The translations under genes and the position numbers were made by a program. Under the pieces are notes generated by a model. That model was not told where the DNA came from. It made no database searches and saw nothing but the letters and a program-made list of their open reading frames with translations. This document shows, one piece after another, positions 36,348 through 57,753 of a stretch of DNA of 64,000 nucleotides. The stretch is taken from positions 1-64,000 of the IMG/VR virus record IMGVR_UViG_3300009146_000001. One strand, written 5' to 3'. Position 1 is the stretch's first letter. Each line of letters starts with the position of its first letter. This DNA is from a virus.

Positions 36348-36622
36348 GATGTTCTGCATGCCGGGTATGGGGTTCGCGCTTTGCGCTCGGACAACGGGCA
36401 GCCTTAATTGGCGTTTCGTCATCCACCACACCTGACAGTGCGTAAGGAAACACTGGTGATTCACCGCGTCAACCACTTTCGTGTGGTAATCCACACCAGC
36501 CTTTGGGATTCTTTTCTTGCGATGGAATGTGACCCCATGTACGCAGGTATCGCGCCTCCCGTGGCGCTCTTCATGGACCGGGGGCTGGTTCTCAGGGGTG
36601 CTTGCCAGCTCCCGGTTTATCT

Positions 36623-36808
36623 ATGAAACGGACCACCTGCAAGACACCCCAAGTCCGGCTCGATGAAGACATCGCGGCATGGATCCAGCAGCAGGCGGAC
36701 GCCGAACACCGCAGCTTGGGCCAGATGACGAACCTGCTCATCAGGAGGATGAGGAAGGTGCTCCACGAGAAGAAGGTCGAAGACCAGATGGACCAATTCC
36801 TGCCATGA
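36623..36808 (+). CDS. Arc/ribbon-helix-helix regulator
   Basis: QVRLDEDIAAWIQQQADAEHRSLGQMTNLLI. Confidence 0.75.
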   Translation: MKRTTCKTPQVRLDEDIAAWIQQQADAEHRSLGQMTNLLIRRMRKVLHEKKVEDQMDQFLP

Positions 36809-38135: not shown

Positions 38136-38191
38136 GAAAAGAAATGACCCCGATCCCACTAGCGGAAAATCCGCTAGCAGAACCGGGGTCA
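38136..38191 (-). terminator. Long G-U-containing hairpin/terminator with a box B copy at its core
   Basis: TGACCCCGGTTCTGCTAGCGG-ATTTT-CCGCTAGTGGGATCGGGGTCA then TTTCTTTTC on the - strand. Confidence 0.65.
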
Positions 38192-38924: not shown

Positions 38925-39638
38925 TCAGAAGCGCCGTCGCAGAATCGGAAGGCTGATCAGGCCAAGGCCCATGAGCCCGAGGGTCCAACCCCCATCGGGG
39001 CAGGAGATTTCCAGCTTGGAAACCCGGACATCGAGGTTCGCGAGGGCCGAGGCGTCCACGAAGATGGCGACTGCGCCGACGTTCGCGTAATCCACCGACC
39101 CGACAACCACCGAGGGGCTCGACAGATCCACCGAGTAGTCGGCCAGCCCGACAGCGAGGTTGATGTTGTAGAGGTTGTAGTTCCCGGCATCCGTCGCGAT
39201 TGCGATTTGCAGCACGGCGGTCGGGAGATCCGCAAAGGCGGACACCTCGATGGTGCCGTTCTGGCATTCGCTGATGTCGAGATCCAGACCGTAGTCCAGC
39301 TCGTTGGCGGTGATCCGGTTGTTGGCGTTCGCGTCCGTGATCCCGGCGACACCGTCCCAGACGATCCCACCCTCACCGCGACCGGCGAAGGAGGCGTAAC
39401 CGCCAGCGTTGAACGCGACACCCGTCGCGAAGATACCTGCCGAGGTGGACCAGACCGCCGCGTCACGGATACCGCCGACTGCACCGGGGTGGGCGAAGGT
39501 TCCCGTCGCGATCTGCGGCGGGGTGAGGGAGTTCAGCATGACGATATGGGGACCGCCCAAGAAGTCGTCGATGACGATGGTTGAGGCCGACGCGGACAAC
39601 GCCGCGCTGAGGCCGAGGACTGACAGGAGTCTCTTCAT
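38925..39638 (-). CDS. VPDSG-CTERM (PEP-CTERM-type) surface protein
   Basis: Signal peptide; C-terminus CPDGGWTLGLMGLGLISLPILRRRF. Confidence 0.8.
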   Translation of the reverse strand: MKRLLSVLGLSAALSASASTIVIDDFLGGPHIVMLNSLTPPQIATGTFAHPGAVGGIRDAAVWSTSAGIFATGVAFNAGGYASFAGRGEGGIVWDGVAGITDANANNRITANELDYGLDLDISECQNGTIEVSAFADLPTAVLQIAIATDAGNYNLYNINLAVGLADYSVDLSSPSVVVGSVDYANVGAVAIFVDASALANLDVRVSKLEISCPDGGWTLGLMGLGLISLPILRRRF

Positions 39639-39677
39639 ACTACGAGTGGGGACTATTCTGAGTTTGGGTTTACCGAA

Positions 39678-40373
39678 TTACCGGCGAAGGCGGCGGCCAG
39701 CGAAGCCGAGGCCGACGAGACCGCCACCGAGGAGCACCAAGGTCGAGCCAGCGTCAGGCGTCGGGATGATGACGGTCGGGTTGATGAACGGTCCGCCAAC
39801 CGGGCCAGCGATCCAGCCAGATCCGCCATTGGGCGTGTTCTGGATATGGGCCGCGCCAGCGAAGGGACCGTGGCCGCCCGCGTCGAGCGACAGGAACTGG
39901 AAGTCGGTCGGGCTCAGGCTGCCGTCAGAATCCGTGAAAAACAGCACGAGGGATTCATTTGCGCCGAAGGTCTTGGCGAGATTTCCGCCCTGCGCGAAGT
40001 CGATCAGGATGTCGAAGAATCCGTCGCCGTCCGCCTTGAAGGCATTCTCGGACAGGGACACCGTGGGATTATCGAACGTGCCGACCTTGGTCCCGAGCGA
40101 CACCGAGATCGTGGTCAGGTCGAGAAGGTCGTTGTAGTTGATCGAGGTCTCGTCGTTGTTCTCGCTGCCGAGGAGGCCGACGTTGTTGATCGTCAGCTTG
40201 ACCGTGCCCGCAGGCTGGGCGACATCGGTCAGGCTGAGCGTGACCCACGGAGCCGGGCCAGCGGGAGCGGTCCCGCCGGAGAACTCCGCGTTCATGTTGT
40301 AGTTCAGGGTGATGCCACTGGCCGACAGCGCGGAGGCGGCGGCGATGGCGGTAAGGATGGTTAGGGTTTTCAT
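39678..40373 (-). CDS. VPDSG-CTERM (PEP-CTERM-type) surface protein
   Basis: Signal peptide; C-terminus TPDAGSTLVLLGGGLVGLGFAGRRLRR. Confidence 0.85.
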   Translation of the reverse strand: MKTLTILTAIAAASALSASGITLNYNMNAEFSGGTAPAGPAPWVTLSLTDVAQPAGTVKLTINNVGLLGSENNDETSINYNDLLDLTTISVSLGTKVGTFDNPTVSLSENAFKADGDGFFDILIDFAQGGNLAKTFGANESLVLFFTDSDGSLSPTDFQFLSLDAGGHGPFAGAAHIQNTPNGGSGWIAGPVGGPFINPTVIIPTPDAGSTLVLLGGGLVGLGFAGRRLRR

Positions 40374-40468
40374 TCTGAGTCACAGAATAAGCAACCCCAA
40401 TACCACCGCAGTACAAACGACTTAGCTACCCGGAATGTAAGAATTCCCTGAACTGCGGTCGGAATTCC

Positions 40469-41044
40469 TTACTGCTTGATGACTTCGAACTTCTCGGTAC
40501 GGACGGTGCCGGTGACCTGCTCGGTGACACAGTCCAAGGTCTTCCGGATACGCAAAGTCTCGTAGACTCGCGGAGTAATCACTGCCGTTGCGGTCTGGCG
40601 CGTCAGCGGAATGTCGATCACGACATCGCTCTCGCCCCACTGGGTCGTCGGTGCCCCGGAGCCGGGAATACGTTCCACAACGTAGTCTTCCCGGCAGACC
40701 TCGATGGGAACGGACTTCTGCTCGGAGACGACGTACTTCCGGATCCGGACCGATCCATTCGAGACCGTCTTCTTGTCGACAGTCAGATCCTCGGCCTTGA
40801 GTTCCAGAGTCTCCCCGGCGACCAGATTGGTCACGGTTTCCACGGGGTGGCTTTGGGGAACGGGCGGAGAATACAACGGCAGGGGCGTGTTGAGGACGGA
40901 ATCGCGGTCCCGCCCCTTTGTGCCTCCCCGGTGCTCAGAACACTCCAGCGGAGTCGTGGTGCGTTTGTGGCAGTGTTCCCGGTCATAGGTTCGACACCCG
41001 GCGGACAGGGAAGCGATGGCGAGGAGCAATAGGAGTTGCTTCAT
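40469..41044 (-). CDS. Lipoprotein with DUF2382 (YsnF/AvaK) domain
   Basis: MKQLLLLLAIASLSAGC lipobox; EDLTVDK...GSVRIRKYVV...REDYVVER...TVRTE. Confidence 0.8.
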   Translation of the reverse strand: MKQLLLLLAIASLSAGCRTYDREHCHKRTTTPLECSEHRGGTKGRDRDSVLNTPLPLYSPPVPQSHPVETVTNLVAGETLELKAEDLTVDKKTVSNGSVRIRKYVVSEQKSVPIEVCREDYVVERIPGSGAPTTQWGESDVVIDIPLTRQTATAVITPRVYETLRIRKTLDCVTEQVTGTVRTEKFEVIKQ

Positions 41045-41346
41045 AGGAAGGAAGGGTAGCTTTTCCCCCTGCGTGCGGCCAGTTCGCTTATGCACTGACG
41101 GATGCTGAGGAGGGTGCACTGGTTGGACGGGTGAAGCATCCTGAATTCCCCGGAGCGCAGGAGGCGAATGCCTCCACCCTCCGTGAAGGCAAGGAAGGTG
41201 CCGCACTCCCTGCAAACCGTGAGATCACCCGTCTTCGGCGCGCAGACCTCGCCCGGAGTGGCGTTGGTTGCCGCGCTGAGTTTCGCGTGGCAGACCGGGC
41301 AGGCGAAGGGATCAAGCAGGTGGGTGTTCACGGTGTTTCCTCGCAA
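41041..41346 (-). CDS. Zinc-ribbon protein
   Basis: CPVC...CREC. Confidence 0.6.
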   Translation of the reverse strand: MRGNTVNTHLLDPFACPVCHAKLSAATNATPGEVCAPKTGDLTVCRECGTFLAFTEGGGIRLLRSGEFRMLHPSNQCTLLSIRQCISELAARRGKSYPSFL

Positions 41347-43953: not shown

Positions 43954-44186
43954 TCGTTTCTACGGATAGCTTCCTTCCCCCCTTCCCACTCCCCCAGTCA
44001 TACGTTCCTACCCGGCTTCGAGGCAAAGTACCCCCCGGTGACCCTCGTCACCCCCGCTTTATATTAGGCCAGAGAAGGGCGACATACCCCCAAACCCCCT
44101 TAAGCCAGAGGGGCTTGCGACCCGACCCGCCCCGTCAAAAGCCATGGTCTGAATTATTGCGCACAACAAGCATTATATTCACTTCC

Positions 44187-44250
44187 TTAGCGGTTTTTCC
44201 GCTAGCGGGGAGTGGAAAGCATGAGCCGGAATTGTAGGGGTGACTTGCCA
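44187..44250 (+). promoter_or_regulatory. First cassette: box B (44187-44205) then box A (44230-44250)
   Basis: TTAGCGGTTTTTCCGCTAG; AATTGTAGGGGTGACTTGCCA. Confidence 0.7.
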
Positions 44251-44312
44251 TAGTGGGGGAACCTCACAACGAGGCAACCCTGACACAATCAAACCTAGAT
44301 AGACTGGAAATT

Positions 44313-45065
44313 ATGAAGGAAGCAAAGTCGAAGAACGCCACTAAGGCGAACGTCGAAATCATTCAACCGGCAACTGAGCCCACCGTCATTCCGGCAACTG
44401 AGCCCACCGTAGAGATTGGCCCGTTGCCCCTTGTTGGCGGCGAATATTCACCCGAAACGTCGAAAGACTTTTCGCTGGATATCACCTACACGGAAGGAAC
44501 CGTATCGGATTTTGCCGCGCAATCGGAAAACCAATTGGCTGCACTGGAAAACCTTAAGACGGCCGTTAAGGGCATGGCGAATGGTCGCATTGCTATCATC
44601 GCGGCAGTTAAGGCTGCACTGGCAACAGGCTGTCCTGTCGCAATCGTGCGGCATACGTTCGTAGAGTGCTGGATTGCGAATGGGGGAACAAAAACCTACG
44701 CGAACGAAATCATGTTAGGTTGCGGGATTCGTTTGCGCGCCGTGCGCAAGGACGCTGGCAAGTCCAAGGGGACAACGCCTGCAACGCCTAATCCCGCAAC
44801 GCCGGGACAGCCTGCAACGCCTCAGACGCCTGCAACGCCGGGACAGCCTGCTAGCGGAAATGCCGCTAGCGTGGAAACGCCGGTTGCCGGGACGGCAACG
44901 GTGGAAACGCCAGTCCCGACAGTCAACCTTGAAACGGTCAAGGATTTGACTCCTGAGGAAATTGGCAAGGCAATCGGTGCCTCTATCCTTGCGCAGTATG
45001 GCAAGGACAAGGCTAAGGAAGTTGCCCGTCACGTCATGGCAACGATTCATCAGGCATCAGCCTGA
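44313..45065 (+). CDS. First putative early protein, with PAT repeats
   Basis: 250 aa; 20-bp tandem repeat at 44367/44391; internal box B at 44851. Confidence 0.75.
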   Translation: MKEAKSKNATKANVEIIQPATEPTVIPATEPTVEIGPLPLVGGEYSPETSKDFSLDITYTEGTVSDFAAQSENQLAALENLKTAVKGMANGRIAIIAAVKAALATGCPVAIVRHTFVECWIANGGTKTYANEIMLGCGIRLRAVRKDAGKSKGTTPATPNPATPGQPATPQTPATPGQPASGNAASVETPVAGTATVETPVPTVNLETVKDLTPEEIGKAIGASILAQYGKDKAKEVARHVMATIHQASA

Positions 45066-45070
45066 CAACG

Positions 45071-45103
45071 AAGAGATCACTCGCGAGAGTGGTCTCTTTT
45101 TTT
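45071..45103 (+). terminator. Intrinsic terminator
   Basis: AAGAGATCACTC-GCGA-GAGTGGTCTCTT + T-run. Confidence 0.85.
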
Positions 45104-45218
45104 GTGCCCTTATCCGGCATGGTCCCGCGACCCCGGTGCCGCCAGCATCCTGCCCCATCGGGGCATGGGGGCGGTGCGCGATAGCCGGGCCGCACACGCG
45201 GGATTGGGGGCGGTGCGG

Positions 45219-45340
45219 AATTCTAGGGGTGACTTGCATATATGTGGAGACGCTCACCGATATGTTTCGGCGGGGCGAACCACTAAACCTTAGCGGAAAT
45301 TCCGCTAGCAAACACAACTGACAGGAAGAAAGCAGAACAT
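45219..45340 (+). promoter_or_regulatory. Cassette: box A-hairpin-box B-leader
   Basis: Box A TAG at 45224, box B 45290-45308, CAACTGACAGGA, ATG 45341. Confidence 0.8.
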
Positions 45341-45556
45341 ATGGCAGCAATCGTAGCAGCACTGATCGGTAAGTTCGTTACCGTCAAGACCGCAGGCAAC
45401 ACGTCGATCTTCGGCAGCCTCAAGGAACTCCCCGATAACGGAGGCTTCGAGATCTGGTCGAACCCGGCAATGAGCACAAGCTTCGGCTTGCGCTTCGGGG
45501 TCAAGGCCATCGCCACGGTCACGGCCGGGGAAACCATCGTCATCAACCTCAAGTAA
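45341..45556 (+). CDS. Small beta-rich early protein
   Basis: 71 aa directly after a cassette. Confidence 0.7.
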   Translation: MAAIVAALIGKFVTVKTAGNTSIFGSLKELPDNGGFEIWSNPAMSTSFGLRFGVKAIATVTAGETIVINLK

Positions 45557-45562
45557 CTGACC

Positions 45563-45700
45563 ATGGACGGGCAAGACGCGGAACACGCCGCCTTCATCGA
45601 AGGCATCATCGTCATCGAACTCCTCATCGCACTCGGCGAGATGCCTCCCACACGGGAGCGCGTCTCGGAGGAGGATCTCTCGATCTCAATAGCAGAATAA
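45563..45700 (+). CDS. Small acidic protein (45 aa), not in the ORF track
   Basis: MDGQDAEHAAFIEG..., preceded by AACTGACC. Confidence 0.5.
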   Translation: MDGQDAEHAAFIEGIIVIELLIALGEMPPTRERVSEEDLSISIAE

Positions 45701-45710
45701 CCGCTAACAT

Positions 45711-45926
45711 ATGAAGCAAATCCTGATCGTCATCCTCTCCGTGCTGTGCCTCCTCGGGTGCCGCACGCGACAGCCGCAGCCGACACCGGCCGCGCTCTAC
45801 GCCGAACTCGTCCGCGTCTACGGTGCGGCCGACGCTGCCTCCATCTGGGAGGAACGCGGCTTCGCTCCGGTTCATCCCCGTGACTGGGGCGACGTGACCG
45901 GGAAGACCGGCACAATCTCGGACTGA
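45711..45926 (+). CDS. Small lipoprotein
   Basis: MKQILIVILSVLCLLGC lipobox. Confidence 0.7.
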   Translation: MKQILIVILSVLCLLGCRTRQPQPTPAALYAELVRVYGAADAASIWEERGFAPVHPRDWGDVTGKTGTISD

Positions 45927-45931
45927 ACCTT

Positions 45932-46099
45932 ATGTATAAAACCACTGTCATCATAAGCACGGAGTTCAACGCGGCGGAGTTCACGCTGGATGAACTGGTG
46001 CATCATGTGAACATCAATGGCGCGCAGCTCCTCTCGATGACCACCGAGAGCGACCGACCACCGGAATCCTATCCGCCTATGTCGGAGCCGAACGACTGA
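45932..46099 (+). CDS. Small protein (55 aa), not in the ORF track
   Basis: MYKTTVIISTEF..., ends just before a terminator. Confidence 0.55.
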   Translation: MYKTTVIISTEFNAAEFTLDELVHHVNINGAQLLSMTTESDRPPESYPPMSEPND

Positions 46100-46102
46100 A
46101 CC

Positions 46103-46137
46103 AGCCCAGCCTCCTTCACCGGGGGCTGGGTTTTTTC
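46103..46137 (+). terminator. Intrinsic terminator
   Basis: AGCCCAGCCTCC/GGGGGCTGGGTT + T-run. Confidence 0.8.
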
Positions 46138-46144
46138 GTGCCCA

Positions 46145-46261
46145 AATCTAGGGGTGACTTGCAATGGTAGATGGGACTCGCTCGGGATTGATTCCGCAGG
46201 CGACCAGCCCGAAATGACAGCAACCAATAGCGGAAATTCTGCTAGCAGATGACAGGAACAT
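46145..46261 (+). promoter_or_regulatory. Cassette: box A-hairpin-box B-leader
   Basis: Box A TAG at 46149, box B 46227-46245, TGACAGGA, ATG 46262. Confidence 0.8.
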
Positions 46262-47146
46262 ATGGACATCAACGGTAACATCATCGCCGGTCTACTCACC
46301 GGCCGGGTCGAATGCACCTTGGGGTGCGGCCAATCCAAGAAGCTGAAGGAAGCATCGCGGGATGCATCGGTCAGCCTCGGCGCGGTCGATCCCTTCGGCA
46401 AGCCGAACGGAAGCGTCGACGTCAGCGCCAAGCTCTGGAACACAGCGCCGAGGGTGAAGCGCCTGATCCTCGACATGGCGAACATCAGGCCAGCGGCTCA
46501 GGACATGGCTCTCCCGTGGGTGGAGAAGGCCATCATCTTCCGGGTCGCAAGGGCGCAGGAGATCAAGCGCAGGGTCGACGCGCTGATGGACGGGCTCACG
46601 CCTCGGATCGACGACATCGAACTCAACTTCGACGAGGAAGTGCGTGCCGCAATGGCCGGGTATCCGGGCGGGGCGGAGCGGGATTTCTACCCGTTAGACG
46701 GGCAGGATTTCCGCAGCGGCATCGTCCGCAAGTTCGTGGTGTCGGCGGTGCCGTCGTCGTCGGCGATCATCCAGCTCCTCGGGGAGGACGTGGGCACCAG
46801 CCTTGCAGCGGAGCGCGAGGATGACATGCGCCAGAACCTCGCCAAGTCGCAGGCCGTGGTCGTGGCCCGGCTGCACGCGGCGATGGAGCGCATCGTCGCA
46901 GCCTGCGATCCCGGCAAAGACCGGGTCAGGATCACGCAAGGTCTGCTCGGTGACATGAATGAGTTGATGGATACGGTTCCCAACTTGTTGCTCATCCCCG
47001 ATCCCAAGATCGAGGACTTGGCCAGCGATATCCGGCTGGCGTTCTCGGGGATATCCCGAGAGGACTTGGCGGAAGACAAGGGGGCACGGGCCTCCGCCCA
47101 CACACTGGCGAAATCCTTCGCCTCAACCCTCGCCGCCATAATCTAG
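46262..47146 (+). CDS. Helical protein, DUF3150-like partner of MoxR/vWA
   Basis: 294 aa all-alpha; context next to AAA and vWA genes. Family assignment from memory. Confidence 0.55.
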   Translation: MDINGNIIAGLLTGRVECTLGCGQSKKLKEASRDASVSLGAVDPFGKPNGSVDVSAKLWNTAPRVKRLILDMANIRPAAQDMALPWVEKAIIFRVARAQEIKRRVDALMDGLTPRIDDIELNFDEEVRAAMAGYPGGAERDFYPLDGQDFRSGIVRKFVVSAVPSSSAIIQLLGEDVGTSLAAEREDDMRQNLAKSQAVVVARLHAAMERIVAACDPGKDRVRITQGLLGDMNELMDTVPNLLLIPDPKIEDLASDIRLAFSGISREDLAEDKGARASAHTLAKSFASTLAAII

Positions 47147-47290
47147 GGGTGGGTTGCATAGGTAGTAACCGATAGAGCGTGGCCCAAGGGACGGTTCCCT
47201 TGGTTCCCACTCTGACGGTAACCAATCCTTCAGACGCTAACGGAAATTCCGCTAGTGCAACTGACACACACTGACGGGAAAGCATTTGGT
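47140..47290 (+). promoter_or_regulatory. Cassette: box A-hairpin-box B-leader
   Basis: Box A TAG at 47144 is the upstream stop; stem CCAAGGGA/TCCCTTGG; box B 47237-47255; two ACTGAC. Confidence 0.8.
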
Positions 47291-48391
47291 ATGATATTCG
47301 AAGTTAACTACGCGGAGTTGGGTGACCACATCGACAACAGCATCGACAGCGGCATGGCCGCAGCGGTCATCAGCCACCCCGGTGTCGGCAAGACCACGTT
47401 CATCAAGGCCGTGGCCAACAAGCGCAACATCGCCATGGGTGGCAAGCGCATCGGCGACACCTTCGGGCGGCGGGAGATGCTCGGCTTCCTCTATGAGCCG
47501 GTCGACTTCCGGGGACTCATGGTTCCGCAGCAGGATGGCAGCACCAAGGTGTTCCCCTTGGACAAGTGGCCGTTCGAATCCTTGGTGCAGAAGGGACTCA
47601 TCCCTGAGCACGGCGTGTTCGTTCTCGACGACATGCTCAACGCACCTCGCTCGGTGCTGGATGCATTCGCCGAGCCCTTGTGCGAGCACACGGTCAACGG
47701 GGAAAGGTTGGCTCCCGGCTGGACGATCATCGCAACCGGGAACCATATCGGTGGAGGCAGCTCGGCCAAGCCGATGCCCAACCACGTCACGAACCGGCTC
47801 GCAATCCTTGCGCTCAAGCCGGACTGGGAATCATGGGCTAGCTGGGCCGTCGGCAATATCGCGCCGGAGTTGCTGGGGTATTTCGAACTCCAGAAGGGGG
47901 CGGACCTCTTCGCATACGACCCCAAGCTGCGCGCTGAGCGGCCGAACGAGCCGTACCTCACGCCGAGATCATGCGAGCACCTGTCTCGACGCATCGAGGC
48001 GTGGCGTGCGAACCGGGGCGACAAGCCGCCGATGCATTTGTATGCATCCGTGGTCGGTGACTACGGAGCCAAGCTCTGGGCCACGCTGGATTACATTCAC
48101 GAGCTTGCACCTTGGGAAGAGGTGCTCGCGGATCACAAGGCAGCGCGTCTGCCGGTGTCCGCCGGGGCGAAGTTCGCCCAGATCAGCATCCTCTTGGGAG
48201 GCTTGCAGCAGAACTGCCCGGAAGGGATGAGCATCCCGCGTCCCATCGCCGCAGCGGTGGGCGGGTACATGAACCGCCTGCCCAACGAGGTGCAGGCCGT
48301 CGCCCATAACCGGGCGATGAGGCTGCGCAAGGAGTGGAGCCGGACGGACGAGTGCACGAAGTGGTTCGTGAAGAACCAATCGGAAATCTAG
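47291..48391 (+). CDS. MoxR-type AAA+ ATPase
   Basis: Walker A HPGVGKT, Walker B FVLDD, IIATGN, NRL, TPRS. Confidence 0.85.
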   Translation: MIFEVNYAELGDHIDNSIDSGMAAAVISHPGVGKTTFIKAVANKRNIAMGGKRIGDTFGRREMLGFLYEPVDFRGLMVPQQDGSTKVFPLDKWPFESLVQKGLIPEHGVFVLDDMLNAPRSVLDAFAEPLCEHTVNGERLAPGWTIIATGNHIGGGSSAKPMPNHVTNRLAILALKPDWESWASWAVGNIAPELLGYFELQKGADLFAYDPKLRAERPNEPYLTPRSCEHLSRRIEAWRANRGDKPPMHLYASVVGDYGAKLWATLDYIHELAPWEEVLADHKAARLPVSAGAKFAQISILLGGLQQNCPEGMSIPRPIAAAVGGYMNRLPNEVQAVAHNRAMRLRKEWSRTDECTKWFVKNQSEI

Positions 48392-48508
48392 GGGTGAGTT
48401 ACACCTATGGAGCGGGCGATCAGCGTCTGCTCCATACGTGTGTCTCAACACTGAGATACTGCTAACGGAAATTCCGCTAGCGAACCAACCAAGAAAGGGA
48501 ACTGACGG
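48385..48508 (+). promoter_or_regulatory. Cassette: box A-hairpin-box B-leader
   Basis: Box A TAG at 48389 is the upstream stop; 13-bp stem TATGGAGCGGGCG/CGTCTGCTCCATA; box B 48462-48480. Confidence 0.8.
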
Positions 48509-49903
48509 ATGGATAACACAACACCGGCTGTCTTGCGAAAGGCAGTCAACCAGATCTTCCTCAAGGCAATCTGGGTCACGGAGATCGGCTTCGAACGCTG
48601 CGTCTTCATCGAGATGCCGGAACTCATGGCCTCGAACGGGCAAGGCACGATGGCGACGGACGGAAGGGTAGTCTACTACCACCCGTCCTGCCTCAGGTGG
48701 CAGCCTGCGTTCATCGAAGGCGTGATCGTGCATGAGTGGCTTCACGGTGCACTGATGCATCCGGAGAGGTTCGCGGTGCTCCCGGAGAAGAACCACAAGG
48801 TGGCCAACATCGCGATGGACGCCATCGTCAACGCGATGTGCATCGAGTGGGGATTCAAGCTGCCGGAAGGTGCCATCGACATGCCCGAGGGGCGGACGCA
48901 TACGTTCGAGCAACTCTACGCCAAGCTCATGGGCAAGCAGAAGCAGCAGCCGGAGCCGCAGCGTGGCAAGGGCAAGGGCGGCGACCAGCAGGGTGAATCC
49001 GAGGGCGATCAGGGTGGAGACTCTGACGGGGATGGTGAGGGCGAGGGCTCCGGGTCAGGAGATCAGGAGGATTCCGATCAGGATCGGGAGGGCGATGGCG
49101 GAGGTGGCGACGAGGAGAAGGACGGGGACGGGGATAAGGAAGGCAAGGGCAAATCCGGTAACGGAAAATCCGCTAAGGATGCAAAGCCCGAGCCCGCCAA
49201 GGGTCCGCCCAAGCCGACGCTCGGCGAGAGGGACATCCACAAGGCTCCGTCTCGTGGATCCCAAGCCGAGGACAAGACAGCGGAGGAGCGGGCCAATGCC
49301 GCCATCGTCCGTGCCGTGGCCACAGCCAAGGCGCATGGCAAGGATCCGCTCGGGCTCGGCCTCGCCGTCGCAGGCTGGGGAGAGTCGAAGGTATCATGGC
49401 GCGAGCAGCTTGCTGCCTACGCCACGCAGCGGACCAACGAGGACTGGTCTTACATGAAGGCCAACGGTTCCTACGCTGCCATGAACGTGATCGTTCCGGG
49501 CAGGTACAGCAAAACAATCGGGGACGTGATCGTCGTCCGCGATACATCGGGCTCGCTCTATTCGAGGCAGAAGGAAGTCATGACCGAGGTGGCCGGGATC
49601 ATCACCCAGTGCACGCCAACCCGGATCATCCTCATCGACTGCGATGCAGAGGTGCACCGCGTCCTCGAACTCGAACCGTGGCAGCCCTTGCCCACGGATG
49701 CACTCGGCGGAGGCGGGACGGATTTCCGTCCGGTCTTCGAGGAGGTGGCCAAGCGTTATCCAGACGTGGGCCTGATGGTATTCATCACGGACCTCATGGG
49801 TTCGTTCCCGGATCAGGCTCCGCCCTACCCGGTGATCTGGTGCGGCATCGAGAACGGCAATCTCAAGCCGCCGTTCGGTGACTTCGTGGAAGTCGCAGAC
49901 TAA
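48509..49903 (+). CDS. Metallopeptidase + vWA domain protein (DUF2201-like)
   Basis: MATDG, HEWLH zincin motif, acidic G/D/E linker, MIDAS DTSGS, GGGGTDF, FITD. Confidence 0.88.
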   Translation: MDNTTPAVLRKAVNQIFLKAIWVTEIGFERCVFIEMPELMASNGQGTMATDGRVVYYHPSCLRWQPAFIEGVIVHEWLHGALMHPERFAVLPEKNHKVANIAMDAIVNAMCIEWGFKLPEGAIDMPEGRTHTFEQLYAKLMGKQKQQPEPQRGKGKGGDQQGESEGDQGGDSDGDGEGEGSGSGDQEDSDQDREGDGGGGDEEKDGDGDKEGKGKSGNGKSAKDAKPEPAKGPPKPTLGERDIHKAPSRGSQAEDKTAEERANAAIVRAVATAKAHGKDPLGLGLAVAGWGESKVSWREQLAAYATQRTNEDWSYMKANGSYAAMNVIVPGRYSKTIGDVIVVRDTSGSLYSRQKEVMTEVAGIITQCTPTRIILIDCDAEVHRVLELEPWQPLPTDALGGGGTDFRPVFEEVAKRYPDVGLMVFITDLMGSFPDQAPPYPVIWCGIENGNLKPPFGDFVEVAD

Positions 49904-50093
49904 GCGGAAATTCCGCTAGTGGATAAGCCCGAGGGGCGGGCAGCGGTGTCTGCCCTTCAGGCTTAGCTACTTCCCATCATACCCGGTTGTCTCCGGGGAG
50001 GTGGGCTTCTGTCAGGTGGTTGTGTCCGAGGGGAGGGCAGGTGTCCTCCCCTCTGACGTGTCCAAATGAATGGACCGAAACAAATGAGAAGCG

Positions 50094-50498
50094 ATGAACA
50101 AATATGACAAGGCGATAGAGACCTATCGTAAATTGCAGGAGCTTCACGCCAAGCGCGATGAACTCTTCCGGGAGTTGGGCTTCTGCCTTGAATGGGCACG
50201 GGCTCTCGATCTGCTGGCGCTCAAGCCAGAGCACGCATCGGGTATTCACCGGGCGCAGGACATGGCGAGCGTGGACGCGAACTCGCTGCCGCATGGCAGC
50301 GCACGATTCGTTTGGCAGAGGTACAAACTCAGGTATCCCAACGCTGTGGTTGGGGCGCACCTCAAGAGTGGTGGGATCGTCATCTTCCTCAACCCGATAC
50401 CGGCGCGCTCCGGACTCGGGGCCGGGCAAGGGGTGCCTACCTACGCAGAGTTCAGTGAGAAATTAAAACAACAACAAGAAAGGAATAGTCATGGCTAA
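50094..50498 (+). CDS. Hypothetical early protein
   Basis: 134 aa. Confidence 0.6.
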   Translation: MNKYDKAIETYRKLQELHAKRDELFRELGFCLEWARALDLLALKPEHASGIHRAQDMASVDANSLPHGSARFVWQRYKLRYPNAVVGAHLKSGGIVIFLNPIPARSGLGAGQGVPTYAEFSEKLKQQQERNSHG

Positions 50499-50748
50499 CT
50501 GTATTGCAAAGTGCTGCGGCATCGACAGCTCGCGGCGAAAGGAAGAACACCGGCTCGGCAGCGAGGCTGCACTGGTCGAGGCGAACACATGGCACACGTC
50601 CGCCGTCGCCTACGTGAAGAAGGACGGGAGCGGCCACGTCAATGTGACGCAGAACGGGAAGGAGATCCTTGGCTTCACGTTCGGGCCGGAGACCGTGCCG
50701 CATAAACCGGACGAGGACGACGACATCGAGCAGGAGGAAACCAAGTGA
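50491..50748 (+). CDS. Hypothetical early protein
   Basis: 85 aa, AAGGA upstream, acidic tail. Confidence 0.65.
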   Translation: MANCIAKCCGIDSSRRKEEHRLGSEAALVEANTWHTSAVAYVKKDGSGHVNVTQNGKEILGFTFGPETVPHKPDEDDDIEQEETK

Positions 50749-50951
50749 ACGAGATCACACTACATCTCCAGCCCGGAGAGATCCAGACCCTCATCGGATT
50801 GGTGCGGGTCGAAGCCGCCAAGTGGCGGGGCAGGATCTGGCGACACCCGGACAGGAACACGAGCGGCCCGCCTGCCGGGTGGCAGGAGCACGTCGATCAA
50901 CTCGACGCACTGAACGACCGGCTCGTGACACAGCTAACACTTAGCACTTGA
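50745..50951 (+). CDS. Hypothetical protein
   Basis: GTGA-coupled. Confidence 0.55.
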   Translation: MNEITLHLQPGEIQTLIGLVRVEAAKWRGRIWRHPDRNTSGPPAGWQEHVDQLDALNDRLVTQLTLST

Positions 50952-50952
50952 C

Positions 50953-51073
50953 AATCTAGGGGTGGGTTGGACTATCGTGACCACGGTTCACGCCGTGGGT
51001 TCACGTCTACGCTAACGGAATTTCCGCTAGTGCAGACCTGAACCTTAACACACAACTGACAGGAGTAGTTATT
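50953..51073 (+). promoter_or_regulatory. Cassette: box A-hairpin-box B-leader
   Basis: Box A TAG at 50957, stem CCACGGT/GCCGTGG, box B 51012-51030, CACAACTGACAGGA. Confidence 0.8.
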
Positions 51074-51712
51074 ATGGGACGACGAAGAAGAAGGAAGCTG
51101 CTGTTCATCGACACGAATGCCTACCCAACGGCGACGCCGACGAACACGCTGGCCGGGATACAACGACGGGTATGGTGGAGCTACGCTGCCTACTTCAGGA
51201 AGTGGCCACGCGATCTGATCTGCTCGAACCCCGCCACACTGATGGGGAAGAACCCATTCGGCACGAACCCCGGATGGGCGGAGAGAAGCGATGACGTCCA
51301 GCGAGACCTCACCTGTCTCTACATGGACTACCTCGAAGCGCGGGACAACCCACGCTGGACCGAAGGGGTGGATGAATCCGTCCGGTCCGATCTGCCGTGC
51401 CGGGTCATGAACTGGCGGCGTACCGACCTCGAACTGCCGCCATGCATGGGCATCCTCTGGGGCTGGGGAACCCGGATGGCCACGGTCATGGCCGCACTGC
51501 GCAAGACAGGCATCCAGTATTACAAGGCACCAGCCTCCGTGAACTGGCTGCACTTCGTGGTGGATGGGCTGAACAAGCACACCATGAACTTCAGGAAGTC
51601 GACGACGGTCATCGTCTTCCCGTTATACAAGACGCGGGAAGTGGAGATTGCACTGACCACCTACTTCCCGTGGAAGGACATCGGGGAAGGGCAGCCGGAC
51701 TACTTCGAATAA
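51074..51712 (+). CDS. Hypothetical protein
   Basis: 212 aa after a cassette. Confidence 0.65.
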   Translation: MGRRRRRKLLFIDTNAYPTATPTNTLAGIQRRVWWSYAAYFRKWPRDLICSNPATLMGKNPFGTNPGWAERSDDVQRDLTCLYMDYLEARDNPRWTEGVDESVRSDLPCRVMNWRRTDLELPPCMGILWGWGTRMATVMAALRKTGIQYYKAPASVNWLHFVVDGLNKHTMNFRKSTTVIVFPLYKTREVEIALTTYFPWKDIGEGQPDYFE

Positions 51713-51713
51713 C

Positions 51714-52274
51714 ATGAGCACGAAGTATTCAGCGGCGGGCATCCGTAAGTTGGTATGGAAGAAGTTCTACATACTCTACGGATGCCTGCCCGGCTATACG
51801 CGGCACGACAAATGGACCGAGCCGTATCCCGATAATGCATTCCTGACCGATGAGGCTATGCAGAAGAAGCTCGTCGAGATCTACATGCATCACACGCTCA
51901 TCACCTCAGAGGGCAGGCCGCACATCTGGGACGAGCGCAACGACGAGTGGTCCTTGAGGGAAACCCTCACCATCGGGGGCCTTTACGAACACTCGGAGCG
52001 GGTATGGAAAGCGATGCAGAGCGAGGGCCTCGCGGCCGATTGGCCTGAGCACTTGGTCGCCCGCCGGATCCGGTACATCACGCATCACAAGCCGCACGGA
52101 CTCAACCTGCGCAGCGTCCGCACTACGCCACGTGGTGGGAAGGTGCCGACCCGCCGGATATTCCTGCCGTACCTGCCGTACAAACCCTACCAAGTGGAGA
52201 ATCTGTTAGCGCGGATGCTCCCGCTCCTGTCCACCAACCTCGATCCCAACAAGATCAATGAGCCAGCCGAATAA
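51714..52274 (+). CDS. Hypothetical protein
   Basis: 186 aa. Confidence 0.65.
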   Translation: MSTKYSAAGIRKLVWKKFYILYGCLPGYTRHDKWTEPYPDNAFLTDEAMQKKLVEIYMHHTLITSEGRPHIWDERNDEWSLRETLTIGGLYEHSERVWKAMQSEGLAADWPEHLVARRIRYITHHKPHGLNLRSVRTTPRGGKVPTRRIFLPYLPYKPYQVENLLARMLPLLSTNLDPNKINEPAE

Positions 52275-53262
52275 GATTCATGAACTCATGGGCAACAGCG
52301 TTGCCTTGGAGATTCTCAAGCAACTCGCGCCGGAAACTAAGGAGACTTTCCGGATCAAGCGGTATCTCCCGGTGCCGGGATACCTCTCGCCCAACGTGGT
52401 CACGACCAACCTCGTGACCAATACACTTATCTCCCTGAGCCAAGGGCCGGAGACGATGGACGGGTCAGCCGCAGCACTGGCAGCGATGACGTGCTGGCAG
52501 ACCGCGCACTTCTGGCCGATGTACGCGGTGACGCAGGAGCTGACCGAAGCCATGCTCCAGACCGAGCCACCGGACGACGTGGTATGGAAGGATCTGTCGT
52601 GGCCCATCCCGGCCGCGACCTTCCTCCTGCCGGATACCAAGGAGGTGCGTGAGCATTTCCTAACCTCGGCACCGCTGGCGATTTCAGCGGGCCGGGTCAG
52701 CACCGCGCCGGTGAACCTCACCAAGGACGCGAGGCACCTGATGGATCTGATAAGGATGCCGCAGAACGAAACCGAGCGGGACATGATCGTCCTCACCTAC
52801 TTCGACGACAAGGTGGGGGTGCCGTGTTGCCACGACCTGACCGTGAAACCGACGTGGACCTTGGCGGAATCCACAATGATGGCGCACGACCGCAAGACGC
52901 AGCATCCCTATCAGTACCCGGTCGAGCCGATTGATCTGCAACGGATGCGCCGCTGTGCCCAGATGTTGATCAACCTCCTGTCCTTCTGCTCATCGGACTA
53001 CATGCCGAAGGTGGAAGAGCACGGCCCGATCATCCTCCGAAGAGAGAAGACAGCCAAGGACGGGAAGGTGAAGCAGGAAGGACTGGCCGGGGTGCGCTGG
53101 CTTGGCGTGGGCTACGTCCGCAAGCGCACTACCTTGGGCGGTCATCACGCCAGTCCGGAGGATCCGTTCTGGCGCAAGGGCCATCACCGATGGCAGCCCT
53201 ATGGTCCGGGGCGCACACTCAAGCGGCTCATCTGGATTGAGCCAGTCCTCTGCTGCGTATGA
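52258..53262 (+). CDS. Conserved phage hypothetical protein
   Basis: C-terminal HASP...WRKGH.R.Q.YG.GR...IWIEP motif. Confidence 0.7.
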   Translation: MSQPNKIHELMGNSVALEILKQLAPETKETFRIKRYLPVPGYLSPNVVTTNLVTNTLISLSQGPETMDGSAAALAAMTCWQTAHFWPMYAVTQELTEAMLQTEPPDDVVWKDLSWPIPAATFLLPDTKEVREHFLTSAPLAISAGRVSTAPVNLTKDARHLMDLIRMPQNETERDMIVLTYFDDKVGVPCCHDLTVKPTWTLAESTMMAHDRKTQHPYQYPVEPIDLQRMRRCAQMLINLLSFCSSDYMPKVEEHGPIILRREKTAKDGKVKQEGLAGVRWLGVGYVRKRTTLGGHHASPEDPFWRKGHHRWQPYGPGRTLKRLIWIEPVLCCV

Positions 53263-53696
53263 CGCACCGACACAAAGCTAACTGGCTTCCTGCCAATACC
53301 CTGAGTCGCCTGAGTTTCTATCGGTGGATGACGCCCACCGAGATGAGGAAATTCCACATCACCATCGGGGGCAACATCGTCGGCCGGTCAACGGACGTGC
53401 TCTGCCGGGGAATGAAGTGGCGGGTCATCCGCAGCGACAGCACACCCGACAAGGACTTCGTCGCCCACGTGGCGATGATCTCGTGGTTATTGCAACGGCC
53501 GCACCGGCAGCAGTTCGGACAAAGCATCAGGATCGTGCAGGTGCCGAAGGCGGGACGCATGGTCTACCATCCGCTCTTCATGGGCGGGACGCAGAAGGGC
53601 AGGGAGTTCGACTCGATGGCCGAAGCCATCGGGTGGACGAGTTACCTATTGGAACTGGCAAAGAATGAAGCACCTGATATTCAGCACGCTACTTAA
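53259..53696 (+). CDS. Hypothetical protein
   Basis: 145 aa, ATGA-coupled. Confidence 0.55.
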   Translation: MTHRHKANWLPANTLSRLSFYRWMTPTEMRKFHITIGGNIVGRSTDVLCRGMKWRVIRSDSTPDKDFVAHVAMISWLLQRPHRQQFGQSIRIVQVPKAGRMVYHPLFMGGTQKGREFDSMAEAIGWTSYLLELAKNEAPDIQHAT

Positions 53697-53766
53697 CCTC
53701 ATCACCATCGCCGTGTTTCTCTACGCGATATGGTGGTTCGTCGTCCTCCTCTTCTCCTTGTGGTGA
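53665..53766 (+). CDS. Single-TM peptide (33 aa), not in the ORF track
   Basis: MKHLIFSTLLNLITIAVFLYAIWWFVVLLFSLW. Confidence 0.45.
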   Translation: MKHLIFSTLLNLITIAVFLYAIWWFVVLLFSLW

Positions 53767-53806
53767 AGGCGGAGGCATCAACACAAAACCAAACTGACAG
53801 TGACAA

Positions 53807-54349
53807 ATGAAACTCGAAGGAATGCTAGGATACATTGAAGCAAGAAGACGGATGGACATCGAGTGCGAGCGGCCGGGGTACGGCACGCTCTTGGCGGAAC
53901 ACGGGGTGCTCTTCCCCAAGATCGGCAGGCGGCCGAAGGGGATGCGGAAGATGAAGCTGGGCATGTGCTATCGGAACGCCAGCACCATAACCAACTTCCC
54001 TTGGGGTGGCGTCGACCTCCTGTACTGCGAAGGATATTCAGCACGGGCCAGTCTGGGTATCCCGCTCCTCCATGCGTGGACCTTGAACCCGGTGACCATG
54101 GAGGTGATCGACCCGACGTGGGATGACGGTGCCGAATACTACGGCTGGGTCTACACGCGGGAGATCATCGCCGAGGCAATGGTCGGGACGATGGAGTACG
54201 GGATCATCGACTCCGATCATCCGAATGGGTGGGAACGGATCCGCCGGATGATCACCGGGGAAATCCCGGCCGCGCACTGGCGGCACGAGATCACCGACAT
54301 GGTGAAGGCACTAACGGAAAAACCGCTAGAGATATGCGAGTCAACCTGA
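53807..54349 (+). CDS. Transglutaminase/papain-like fold protein
   Basis: CYRNA...EGY...HAW...IDPTW gives a Cys-His-Asp triad. Confidence 0.65.
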   Translation: MKLEGMLGYIEARRRMDIECERPGYGTLLAEHGVLFPKIGRRPKGMRKMKLGMCYRNASTITNFPWGGVDLLYCEGYSARASLGIPLLHAWTLNPVTMEVIDPTWDDGAEYYGWVYTREIIAEAMVGTMEYGIIDSDHPNGWERIRRMITGEIPAAHWRHEITDMVKALTEKPLEICEST

Positions 54350-54876: not shown

Positions 54877-54905
54877 TTGACAGTCACAGACGACCGTGTT
54901 ACGCT
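54877..54905 (+). promoter_or_regulatory. Sigma70-type promoter
   Basis: TTGACA-17 bp-TACGCT with extended TG. Confidence 0.6.
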
Positions 54906-54936
54906 GCTCACATGATCAGCGTGGCACGGTTTTTTT
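54894..54936 (+). terminator. Intrinsic terminator overlapping the promoter
   Basis: CCGTGTTACGCTG/CAGCGTGGCACGG + T7. Confidence 0.75.
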
Positions 54937-54962
54937 GTGCCCGGATATAACCACTGGAACCT

Positions 54963-56377: not shown

Positions 56378-57753
56378 CAACCCCACATCCCGCCTACGCC
56401 CGGCTCGAAACCCTGCGGCCCAAGCTTCTGCCTTGGCAGCCGGAGGCGTGCGAGAAACTGATCGGGTCCATCCTCCGCCATGGCTCTGCCCTCGATAGCT
56501 CCGACACCGGGGTGGGCAAGACCGCGCACGCGATTGCCTGCGGCTACGCCCTCGGCATGCCGTTGGCCATCGTCTGCTCGAAGTGGGCCAAGCCGCAGTG
56601 GAAGTACATGGCATGGATGCTCGGCAATACGAACATCGCCGGGGTCCATCACTGGGAGGAGGTGCGGCTGGGCAAGACGCCCTTCGGCAACTGGGTCAAC
56701 CCGGATGCCAAGGAGAACTTCCAGTGGAAGCTGCCGCCCCATTCCCTCGTGGTCTTCGACGAGGTTCACAAGGCCGGGGGATTCAAGACGCAGAACTCGT
56801 GGATCATGATATCGGCCAAGCGCAACGGCCACTCCGTCCTCGGGCTGTCCGCCACGGTAGCGGATACGCCGCTAAGGATGTTCGCCCTGAGCTACGTGCT
56901 CGGGCTTGTACCAACGACTCGTGCCTACTGGCCGTGGCTCATGTGCAACGGGTGCCAGCGCAACCAGTGGAACGGGATGGAGTTCAGGGATCCATCGGGG
57001 CGGCACACGGCACGGATCCACGACATGATCTTCAAGGCGGGCAGAGGGGTGCGGGTGAAGAAGGATGAGATCCCCGGTTTCCCGGACATCCTCATCGACG
57101 TCGAGACGATGGACTGCTCCGACGCCACGGAGGAAATCGCCAAGGCGTACAAGGAAATCGAGGAAGCCTTGGGTGAGTACACGGCCAAGATCATCTCCGC
57201 CACGAGTGCGGCCGAGATCGTGATCCGGATGCGCCAGAAGATCGAGCTGCTCAAGATCCCGGCCACGGTCAGCATGGTCGAGGACATCGAGGATGACGGA
57301 GGTGCGGCCGTCATCTTCGTCAACTACCGGGAGACGGCGATCAAGCTATGGTCGGCACTCAACTTCAGCTCGAAGGGCGAGGTTGGTCTCATGATCGGAG
57401 GGATGAAGGAGTCGGATATCCAGAAGCACATCCAAGCCTTTCAGGATCAGGCGACCCACCGGCTCGTCGCCACCTACGGGTGCGGCTCGGAGTCCATCAA
57501 CCTTCAAGACCTGACCGGGCAACGGCCGCGCACGGAGTTACTCTTCCCGACGCACTCGTCGCGCCAGATCAGGCAGGCGCAAGGGAGGATCCACCGGGCT
57601 GGCGGCAAGAGCTTGGCCAACGTGCGCTTCGTCTTCGCGGCCGACACCATCGAGGAACACCTGATGCGGACGATCCGGGACAAACTCCTGCGCCTCGACA
57701 CGCTTCAGGACGGCGTCGCTTTGCCGATGCCCCTTCCTCCGGAGATAGAGTAG
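56374..57753 (+). CDS. Superfamily 2 (SNF2-like) helicase
   Basis: DTGVGKT, VFDEVH, LSAT, ESINLQ, QAQGRIHR. Confidence 0.9.
   Translation: MTTPHPAYARLETLRPKLLPWQPEACEKLIGSILRHGSALDSSDTGVGKTAHAIACGYALGMPLAIVCSKWAKPQWKYMAWMLGNTNIAGVHHWEEVRLGKTPFGNWVNPDAKENFQWKLPPHSLVVFDEVHKAGGFKTQNSWIMISAKRNGHSVLGLSATVADTPLRMFALSYVLGLVPTTRAYWPWLMCNGCQRNQWNGMEFRDPSGRHTARIHDMIFKAGRGVRVKKDEIPGFPDILIDVETMDCSDATEEIAKAYKEIEEALGEYTAKIISATSAAEIVIRMRQKIELLKIPATVSMVEDIEDDGGAAVIFVNYRETAIKLWSALNFSSKGEVGLMIGGMKESDIQKHIQAFQDQATHRLVATYGCGSESINLQDLTGQRPRTELLFPTHSSRQIRQAQGRIHRAGGKSLANVRFVFAADTIEEHLMRTIRDKLLRLDTLQDGVALPMPLPPEIE

Follow-up and report, generated by a model that had tools for sequence, protein, structure and literature searches.

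Cassettes that would restart gene expression lie between genes of the plus-strand, non-structural arm of a very divergent, uncultured phage from soil, the host of which probably belongs to the Verrucomicrobia. The window analyzed here is the first 64 kb (64,000 nucleotides) of the complete 76,045-bp virus record IMGVR_UViG_3300009146_000001. The cassettes are built from two polar elements, a 20-nt block named box A and a palindrome named box B. In five units the order of the components is box A, a spacer, box B, a leader with the motif AACTGAC, and an ATG; in a sixth unit (44187–44312) box B precedes box A, as had been noticed in a first-pass annotation made from the sequence alone. This grammar is polar and confined to the non-structural arm. 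The explanation that is tentatively preferred, at somewhat less than even confidence, is that box A is a phage-specific signal for the restart of transcription with a 5′ hairpin, and that box B is a site for a regulator acting at many positions.

Organization and conservation of the cassettes

Box A with its flanks forms the continuous 20-nt block AAWTCTAGGGGTGRSTTRCA, beyond which the sequences surrounding the individual copies are unrelated. The core TCTAGGGGTGRSTTR is matched exactly at 45222, 46147, 47142, 48387, and 50955, in agreement with the positions of its TAG given previously (45224, 46149, 47144, 48389, and 50957), and a copy with one mismatch is located at 44233. All six copies are on the plus strand between 44233 and 50969; the rest of the 76-kb genome contains no copy, and the reversed pattern, which served as a control, had no matches. 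DNA nearly identical to that of the phage is present at low depth (word depth ~2–9 in 44100–51100) in five metagenome runs from different studies (X1–X5), one of freshwater sediment and several of soil or rhizosphere. No RNA run was among the public runs found to contain it, and variant contigs assembled from the DNA runs cover 44100–51100 in part. In the contigs from X4 and X5, the box A of unit 0 reads TTCT instead of TTGT, which would make it canonical. Immediately upstream of the first box B, at 44145–44187, there is an AT-rich island (including TGAATTATTGCGCACAACAAGCATTATATTCAC), which may be a host-type early promoter; six substitutions in the X4 and X5 variants, at 44177–44187, fall between the island and box B.

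The distance from box A to box B in the five units is 40–78 nt, and that from box B to the ATG is 16–43 nt, nearly identical to the previous estimates of 40–80 and 16–43 nt. When the spacers were folded alone, with the boxes excluded, and compared with 200 shuffles each, none of the shuffles folded as well as the spacers of units 1, 3, 4, and 5. The hairpins of these four units start 1–5 nt past box A, with the first paired base 2–6 nt from its 3′ end; none of the predicted folds pairs box A in a consistent way. The first-pass annotation had proposed that the spacer always folds into a hairpin, which is valid for the four units but not for unit 2, the reference sequence of which is no more stable than its shuffles. 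The unit 2 spacer of the X4 variant is more stable than that of the reference (−19.4 versus −15.5 kcal/mol). No Rfam family matches the units. Transcripts would start a few bases from the 3′ end of box A, so that the variable hairpin would become a 5′-terminal stem-loop protecting the messenger RNA; the placement of the four hairpins just after box A is as expected for the 5′ stabilizer suggested earlier.

Two copies of box A follow strong intrinsic terminators (Table 1), and expression of the conserved core genes located downstream therefore depends on a new start or on read-through. This positional logic favors a restart signal: cassettes placed after terminators and gene ends would re-initiate expression of the next gene or group of genes. 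The tail TTTTTT(T/C)GTGCCC is common to three T-runs on the plus strand, at 45096–45108, 46131–46143, and 54930–54942. The first two close strong terminator hairpins, unlike the third, which has no scored hairpin; the most sigma-70-like site of the block, TTGACA-N17-TACGCT (54877–54905), is situated 25 nt upstream of this third run.

The motif AACTGAC has seven copies on the plus strand and one on the minus strand. Six of them, at 45316–53792, precede start codons at variable distances of 1–18 nt, which bears out the earlier description of this leader and extends its list by the copy at 53792. The longer form AACTGAC(A)GG may be a start-associated leader of the main ATG.

No pair of sigma-70-type −35 and −10 elements at a fixed distance was found in or near box A, and a scan of the region with consensus promoters gave 5 sites compared with 5.5 expected, none of them in the units on the plus strand. 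Promoters of the sigma-54 type require GG and GC to be 10 nt apart, and the corresponding distance in box A, at most 8 nt, is 2 nt too short. Because of its spacing, box A was rejected as a promoter of the sigma-70, sigma-54, sigma-28, or extended −10 type, and the previous statement that it fits neither sigma-70 nor sigma-54 stands. By contrast, the loose likeness to the SP6 promoter that had been suggested is superficial, because it requires a 2-nt gap. An analogy to integron attC sites was also rejected, as there is no complementarity between boxes A and B. The preferred explanation is that box A is a single-block promoter, continuous over 20 nt, and that its reader would be an unrecognized phage enzyme or the RNA polymerase of the host, redirected by a phage factor that is likewise unrecognized.

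Two blocks similar to box A form an inverted pair at the divergent junction of the transcription arms, where they flank the ATG at 36623 of the first plus-strand gene, encoding a 61-aa RHH-like protein. The annotation had reported the plus-strand block as a box A with one base deleted; the look-alike is real, although weaker than a true box A, and its inverted partner at 36635–36654 has been added. The pair could represent face-to-face promoters or an autoregulatory operator.

The cassettes can be compared with those of a syntenic relative represented by two contigs from metagenomes, L027 of 16.4 kb and L028 of 3.1 kb, the ATPase of which is 46% identical to that of the window. The two phages have in common five core genes, which encode a 294-aa protein, the ATPase, a DUF2201 protein, a helicase, and a giant protein; none of the small genes between the cassettes are shared, and all of them are lineage-specific. 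Contig L027 contains five to eight copies of the block CCGACTTCGAGCG, each starting 0–6 nt from a stop codon and followed immediately by a GC hairpin and then by CTYTCGGTGCCGGTAAACAACAAC. Its palindrome CTAGTGCAT-N2–4-GCACTAG, present in six copies, has CTAG ends as does box B; however, the inner arm differs on both sides and the center is variable. Three units that have both elements are arranged as block, hairpin, palindrome, leader, and ATG. The block and palindrome also occur singly, and the palindrome supplies the stop codons of two genes. In both phages, the units begin at, or only some nucleotides away from, the stop codon of the upstream gene. Judging from these contigs, the relative keeps the grammar of the cassette while the sequences of both elements have been replaced. 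The spacers had been called unrelated; however, a comparison by eye gives ~68% likeness between TTTCGGCGGGGCGAACCACTAAACC, a part of the spacer of unit 1, and the equivalent stretch TTTCGGGGCCGGTAACCAACAACCC of L027, so that the two are not wholly unrelated. Two paralogous genes of L027 (1970–2737 and 2749–3576) consist mostly of 15-nt tandem repeats, encoding five residues of the GGTIY or GGDIH type, with more than 30 copies in each gene.

The comparison of gene content between cassettes, which the annotation had recommended, shows that small genes differ between the relatives and core genes are common to them, and the cassettes may mark the borders at which gene content changes. One variant contig diverges from the reference exactly at 46147, the 5′ edge of the unit 2 box A, which fits the proposal of a portable module. 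No supported example of a joint between cassettes, as expected from an excised circle, was found in the metagenome contigs. The claim that the module serves host-takeover genes is unfounded, because cassettes also precede the genes of the core 294-aa protein, AAA ATPase, and DUF2201/VWA protein.

It has been considered that the repeats are selfish or purely recombinational small mobile sequences without a regulatory role. The gain and loss of elements between relatives and the breakpoint at the edge of box A agree with this idea, which is nevertheless extremely unlikely: the repeats have strict polarity, are restricted to one transcription arm, and occupy fixed positions with respect to stops and starts. 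In addition, the boxes are conserved between spacers that have diverged completely, and neither terminal inverted repeats nor target duplications are present.

A role of the hairpin units as sites for RNA processing or stability, similar to the early RNase III sites of T7, is very unlikely. The boxes would be recognition flanks within a long early transcript, which the units would cut into stable monocistronic pieces. The hairpins are located exactly at the ends of genes, the units start at or near upstream stop codons in both phages, and the L027 block forms with its 3′ partner one long imperfect helix of 16–22 pairs. However, box A does not pair consistently in the predicted folds, copies of box B inside open reading frames (ORFs) would destroy their own messages, the terminators would still be unexplained, and Rfam provides no match.

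Table 1 Elements of the cassettes and associated features, with positions in the window
Feature	Position	Strand	Remarks
Box A, unit 0	44230–44249	+	AATTGTAGGGGTGACTTGCC, one mismatch; box B is upstream of this box A
Box A, unit 1	45219–45238	+	110 nt past terminator 45070–45108
Box A, unit 2	46144–46163	+	directly after terminator tail GTGCCC
Box A, unit 3	47139–47158	+	TAG is stop codon of gene 46262–47146
Box A, unit 4	48384–48403	+	TAG is stop codon of ATPase gene 47291–48391
Box A, unit 5	50952–50971	+	adjoins TGA of gene 50745–50951
Inverted pair of box-A-like blocks	36591–36654	both	TCTCAGGGGTGCTTGCCA on + (36591–36610), ACTTGGGGTGTCTTGCAGG on − (36635–36654)
Box B, unit 0	44187–44205	+	loop TTTTT; 25 nt upstream of box A, just after AT-rich island
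Box B, unit 1	45290–45308	+	perfect 17-mer
Box B, unit 2	46227–46245	+	single right-arm deviation, T 46240
Box B, unit 3	47237–47255	+	
Box B, unit 4	48462–48480	+	
Box B, unit 5	51012–51030	+	
Box B, alone	49901–49919	+	left arm is TAA stop of DUF2201 gene; no box A nearby
Box B in first early gene	44851–44869	+	encodes ASGNAAS in Pro/Ala linker
Box B in DUF2201 gene	49158–49176	+	within acidic/Gly-rich linker
Box B in 3′ end of gene 53807–54349	54311–54329	+	4 nt before next ATG (54334)
Box B in 3′ end of minus-strand giant gene	58282–58300	+	polarity as in all other copies
Doubtful box B copy	56858		inside ORF
Terminator-like hairpin of minus-strand operon	38146–38190	−	20 bp; box B 38159–38177 is the tip
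Short ORF, unit 1	45242–45286	+	14 codons; ATG 9 nt past GGGGTGA; ends 3 nt short of 19-nt box B
Short ORF, unit 2	46164–46217	+	17 codons; ATG 6 nt after GGGGTGA
Short ORF, unit 4	48407–48454	+	15 codons; ATG 9 nt after GGGGTGA; start in hairpin stem
Short ORF, unit 5	50977–51015	+	12 codons; GTG 11 nt after GGGGTGG; TAA stop in box B left arm
Spacer hairpin, unit 1	45239–45288	+	z −3.9
Spacer, unit 2	46164–46226	+	z +0.2; no significant fold in reference
Spacer hairpin, unit 3	47159–47236	+	z −3.3
Spacer hairpins (two), unit 4	48404–48461	+	z −5.5
Spacer hairpin, unit 5	50972–51011	+	z −3.4
Intrinsic terminator	45070–45108	+	13-bp stem, T7, tail GTGCCC; after first early gene
Intrinsic terminator	46103–46143	+	12-bp stem, T6, tail CGTGCCC; abuts unit 2 box A
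Leader, unit 1	45316–45326	+	AACTGACAGGA; AACTGAC motif scan
Further leader copies	start 45555, 47259 (second ACTGAC 47270), 48500, 51054, 53792	+	

Transcriptional and translational readings of box A

Several observations weigh against the preferred combination of a restart signal and a regulator site. The core of box A, TAG-GGGTGA, joins a stop codon to a near-complement of the generic 16S 3′ tail, resembling a Shine–Dalgarno (SD) sequence. The pairing of GGGGTGA with this tail has an energy of −10 to −11 kcal/mol, compared with medians of −3.8 kcal/mol at the real starts of plus-strand genes and −6.1 kcal/mol at late genes. An ATG or GTG is present 6–11 nt past the SD-like core in five of the six units, against a genome background of 0.17 (P ~8e-4). 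Such a pattern of stop, SD, and start is not predicted by a pure promoter model. The sense and antisense strands of the spacers fold about equally well, and since there is no consistent asymmetry, hairpins of RNA and DNA are indistinguishable; unit 2 has no significant hairpin. Searches of the genome for a reader of box A, such as a polymerase or sigma factor, came out negative. Six-frame searches for sigma-70 region 2 and region 4 were negative, with controls positive in 11–14 of 14 genomes, and none of the large proteins of the phage matched a polymerase family. The six-frame search for a T7-type polymerase (PF00940) gave no match and is uninformative, because its control also matched nowhere. 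No binder of box B has been established either: the RHH matches of the product of the gene starting at 36623 are sub-threshold (E 0.02–0.13), and the AlphaFold model of the first early protein (44313–45065) has a mean predicted local distance difference test score of 55 and no PDB match at E ≤ 0.001. With its poor model and no recognizable fold, the first early protein was dismissed as a candidate for the regulator.

The stop codon and SD-like core are central to the main alternative, rated fairly unlikely, in which box A is a translational stop-and-restart block, similar to the start-associated sequences (SAS) of mycobacteriophages. The TAG, the SD-like GGGGTGA, and the start codon would load or re-load ribosomes onto a leader ORF of 12–17 codons, which would cross the hairpin and end at box B; transcription would originate upstream and pass terminators that are either leaky or subject to antitermination. 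In four units, start codons 0–5 nt after the 20-nt block open ORFs of this length, which are not annotated genes. All four ORFs span the hairpin, and their stops are 0–10 nt before box B or inside its left arm. For two upstream genes, the TAG of box A serves as the actual stop codon. In the X4 variant, an insertion of one nucleotide at 46184 and a deletion of one at 46214 alter the last ten residues of the unit 2 short ORF but keep its length of 17 codons and the same TGA; the insertion alone would lengthen the ORF to 29 codons, through box B. At the syntenic site before the 288-aa gene of L027, TCTCAGGGGTGT is followed by 6 nt, an ATG, and a 16-codon ORF. The SAS GGGATAGGAGCCC also joins a TAG to an SD core (PMC3203893).

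The translational pattern was, however, found post hoc; 3.6% of random 20-mers pair with the 16S tail as well as box A does, and the use of SD sequences is weak overall in this phage. The distance of 9–14 nt from GGGG to the start codon is long for an SD sequence, and strong stems include the start codons in their bases. A start codon after box A is lacking in unit 3, and the upstream GTG of unit 0 is unsupported, as the conservation among homologues starts at the downstream ATG 44313. The flanks AAWTC and CTTGCA are conserved beyond the requirements of an SD sequence, a strong terminator directly adjoins the unit 2 box A, and the compensating indels come from the one contig with a depth of 2.3. 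The promoter-type and translational readings predict opposite sites of primary 5′ ends and initiating ribosomes. If box A is a true promoter, it offers a defined 20-nt signal for hunting the missing polymerase or redirecting factor. If it is translational, it would be a second independent case of the unexplained SAS phenomenon.

Box B as an independent, polar element

The consensus of box B is CTARCGG-AAAWT-CCGCTAG. Its palindrome TAGCGGAAATTCCGCTA has 25 strand-matches at ~13 sites, compared with 0.08 expected from shuffles. Six of the sites belong to units; the others stand alone, are at the tip of a terminator, or lie inside ORFs (four or five copies, the one at 56858 being doubtful). The first-pass annotation was correct in assigning box B to the units, but its view of box B as the operator of each unit is too simple, as box B is an element independent of box A and of the units, polar, multi-site, and also present inside genes. 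The 13 copies all face one way: read along the plus strand, the downstream half-site is the stronger one. Over the seven core positions, the 13 copies deviate from CTAGCGG 3 times in the downstream half and 13 times in the upstream half. One of the right-arm deviations, the T at 46240 of unit 2, is a C in a variant contig, which restores the perfect palindrome.

The copy in the first early gene provides indirect evidence that DNA rather than protein is conserved at 44851–44869. In three homologues of the first early protein (51–77% identity), the linker is rich in indels, yet the island A(S/N)GN(A/S)ASVETP is kept, and the substitutions within the island are those that would be encoded by the changes CTAGCGG to CTAACGG and, in the loop, AAATG to AAATT. 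A search of 185,579 species genomes for box B found three single matches, which corresponds to chance, and box B is therefore not a host motif. Exact searches of IMG/VR for box A, box B, and the L027 motifs returned isolated chance matches only. The tetranucleotide CTAG is depleted in the genome (40 observed, 268 expected from base composition), and 18 of the 40 occurrences are inside boxes A and B, which constitute less than 0.5% of the genome.

By analogy with the stoperators of mycobacteriophages, box B is favored as a candidate protein-binding site that acts at many places, because it is polar, has many copies, some of them within ORFs, and has half-sites of unequal strength, and because its center varies in the relative and it is absent from host genomes. 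A phage-encoded regulator would bind this polar palindrome, which has a strong downstream half-site, and would act at 12 or more sites, some of them in genes, as a roadblock or global operator.

Box B could instead act as a hairpin of nucleic acid, either an RNA loader of an antiterminator similar to lambda nut boxB or a DNA hairpin promoter of the N4 type, with the 4231-aa protein as the candidate polymerase; this possibility is regarded as quite doubtful. The loading of an antiterminator would account for the presence of strong terminators in the array. A stem of 7–8 bp with an A-rich loop of 3–5 nt can be formed by box B, its first copy is placed between the AT-rich island and the first early gene, behind which there is a strong terminator, and the base after CTAG is a pyrimidine and then a purine in most copies. 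The single polarity on the plus strand, the joint change of both arms in the relative, the giant ORF, and the 76-kb genome with terminal repeats are also compatible with a hairpin. However, 13 copies over 20 kb, several of them in ORFs, fit neither nut sites nor N4 early promoters, and the loop or center is variable in the relative. The deviations of box B are transitions that produce wobble pairs on the plus strand at one position and on the minus strand at another, and therefore the hairpin of neither strand is favored. The giant protein has no RNA polymerase motif, family, or structural relative detectable from its sequence.

A bolder version, to which little credence is given, holds that box B, with about one copy per kb along the whole early arm, even in disordered coding linkers where its sequence would stay constant while the protein drifts, provides re-loading points for an unrecognized transcription machine and that, together with box A, it constitutes a system without a recognizable relative. 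The machine may be a processive antiterminator or an enzyme delivered with the virion, such as the orphan 4231-aa protein.

Genome context and comparison with known systems

The ends of the record are direct terminal repeats of 123 bp. A long minus-strand block of tail and head-like genes, including a 4,231-aa ORF at 58083–70778, converges on the plus-strand block at 36.6–57.8 kb, which contains the non-structural genes. The latter encode the RHH-like protein, many small unassigned ORFs, the 294-aa protein, an AAA ATPase (phrog_1297), the DUF2201 gene product, which is a metallopeptidase/VWA protein, and the helicase. Within the plus-strand arm, 38925–41215 contains accessory genes on the minus strand, encoding two proteins with VPDSG-CTERM-like tails and one DUF2382 protein; these genes have their own terminator, the tip of which is a copy of box B. 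The scores of the VPDSG-CTERM-like tails are below the Pfam cut-off, and it is because of these tails that a host from the Verrucomicrobia is hinted at. Nothing usable was found in the literature on promoters or phages of Verrucomicrobia.

The 4,231-aa minus-strand ORF occupies 58083–64000 of the window and continues to 70778 in the genome. Its product contains no cysteines, and arginine accounts for 29% of its last 31 residues. The truncated giant ORF of L027 has 33% identity to the C-terminal ~1,560 residues. No full-length homologue was found among 5.8 billion proteins. The sequence has no match in Pfam, PHROG, or PDB and no catalytic or RNA polymerase motif. The 212-aa protein encoded by 51074–51712 starts with MGRRRRRKLLFIDTN, an arginine-rich N-terminus succeeded by a DTN motif reminiscent of PIN nucleases, a likeness that has no support from Pfam or PHROG. 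No DNA similar to this phage is present in the phage collection. Searches of viral contigs with the ATPase found no close relatives; with an alignment as the query, viral contigs yielded only loci of 30% identity and bacterial genomes yielded no loci. Since almost no protein of the phage can be named, its regulatory grammar is one of the few handles on its biology.

Many phages time and modularize their early genes by repeated cassettes of promoters, terminators, and operators, which are hot spots of gene exchange; the window extends this idea to a very divergent, uncultured soil phage. Promoters of the T7 and SP6 type are continuous blocks of ~20–23 bp with the transcript start at the 3′ end, and their transcripts have 5′ stem-loops and RNase III sites. 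Box A resembles them as a continuous block of ~20 nt in one orientation, positioned before groups of genes and with a stable 5′ hairpin after it. By contrast, a single-subunit RNA polymerase was not detected here, in a search with PF00940, the control of which was equally negative. Lambda has two nut sites per genome. The early hairpin promoters of N4 are few, near one genome end, with a stem of 5–7 bp and a 3-nt loop, and N4 has a giant virion RNA polymerase with T7-family motifs. The likeness to these systems consists of a short stem-loop near putative early promoters, upstream of terminators, and of a gene for a giant virion protein. Box B can be drawn with an 8-bp stem and a 3-nt loop; however, it differs from the N4 hairpins in its 13 copies over 20 kb, several in ORFs, and neither an N-like protein nor a virion polymerase was identified in this phage. 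The 4231-aa protein was rejected as an N4-like polymerase, as Pfam, PHROG, PDB, and motif searches gave it no support.

The promoter-early stem-loop (PeSL) cassettes of T4-type phages contain host sigma-70 promoters, TTGACA-N17-TATAAT and variants (PMC2839356, PMC4122927). Like the cassettes of the window, they are composites of a terminator or stem-loop and a restart signal that recur from one early gene to the next. Cassettes of both kinds cluster at places where the small ORFan genes of relatives differ, and a role as points of recombination has been proposed for each kind. The terminators at 45070 and 46103 before box A and the hairpins after it in four of the five units correspond to the stem-loops of PeSL, and the five core genes, the only ones in common with L027, together with the variant breakpoint at box A correspond to their variable regions. 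Unlike the PeSL promoters, box A has no −35/−10 structure, and there is a second independent palindrome, box B, which is also found inside genes.

The SAS and extended SAS (ESAS) of Cluster K mycobacteriophages, the function of which is not established, are asymmetric blocks with an SD core 3–7 bp before the start codons of annotated genes (PMC3203893). Box A is an asymmetric block with a TAG and an SD-like core near a start codon. The one orientation and restriction to the non-structural half of the genome are the same, and in both systems about half of the sites are accompanied by an imperfect inverted repeat with one arm better conserved. However, the sequences are unrelated, with only TAGG common to the SAS and box A. 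Box A precedes short ORFs and not annotated genes, and it is AACTGAC that is nearest to the real ATG, at 1–18 nt. The inverted repeat of box B is much shorter than that of ESAS (7–8 bp arms, 3–5 nt center) and also stands alone.

In Cluster A mycobacteriophages, which are temperate, the monomeric immunity repressor binds stoperators, asymmetric sites with a length of 13 bp (PMC9283540, PMC6550527). Stoperators serve as the working model for box B, with which they share many dispersed copies, locations in or near short intergenic gaps, and a polarity tied to transcription. By contrast, box B is palindromic, and no repressor was identified here; a six-frame search for a tyrosine integrase was negative, with the control positive in 14 of 14 genomes.

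Three features go beyond the routine: a putative restart block without the structure of host-type promoters that doubles as a stop codon and SD-like block, a palindrome retained in coding linkers, and a relative with the same grammar in which both sequences have been swapped. The cassettes are a new sequence form, in a partly new arrangement, of the phage gene punctuation already known from PeSL, SAS/ESAS, and stoperators.

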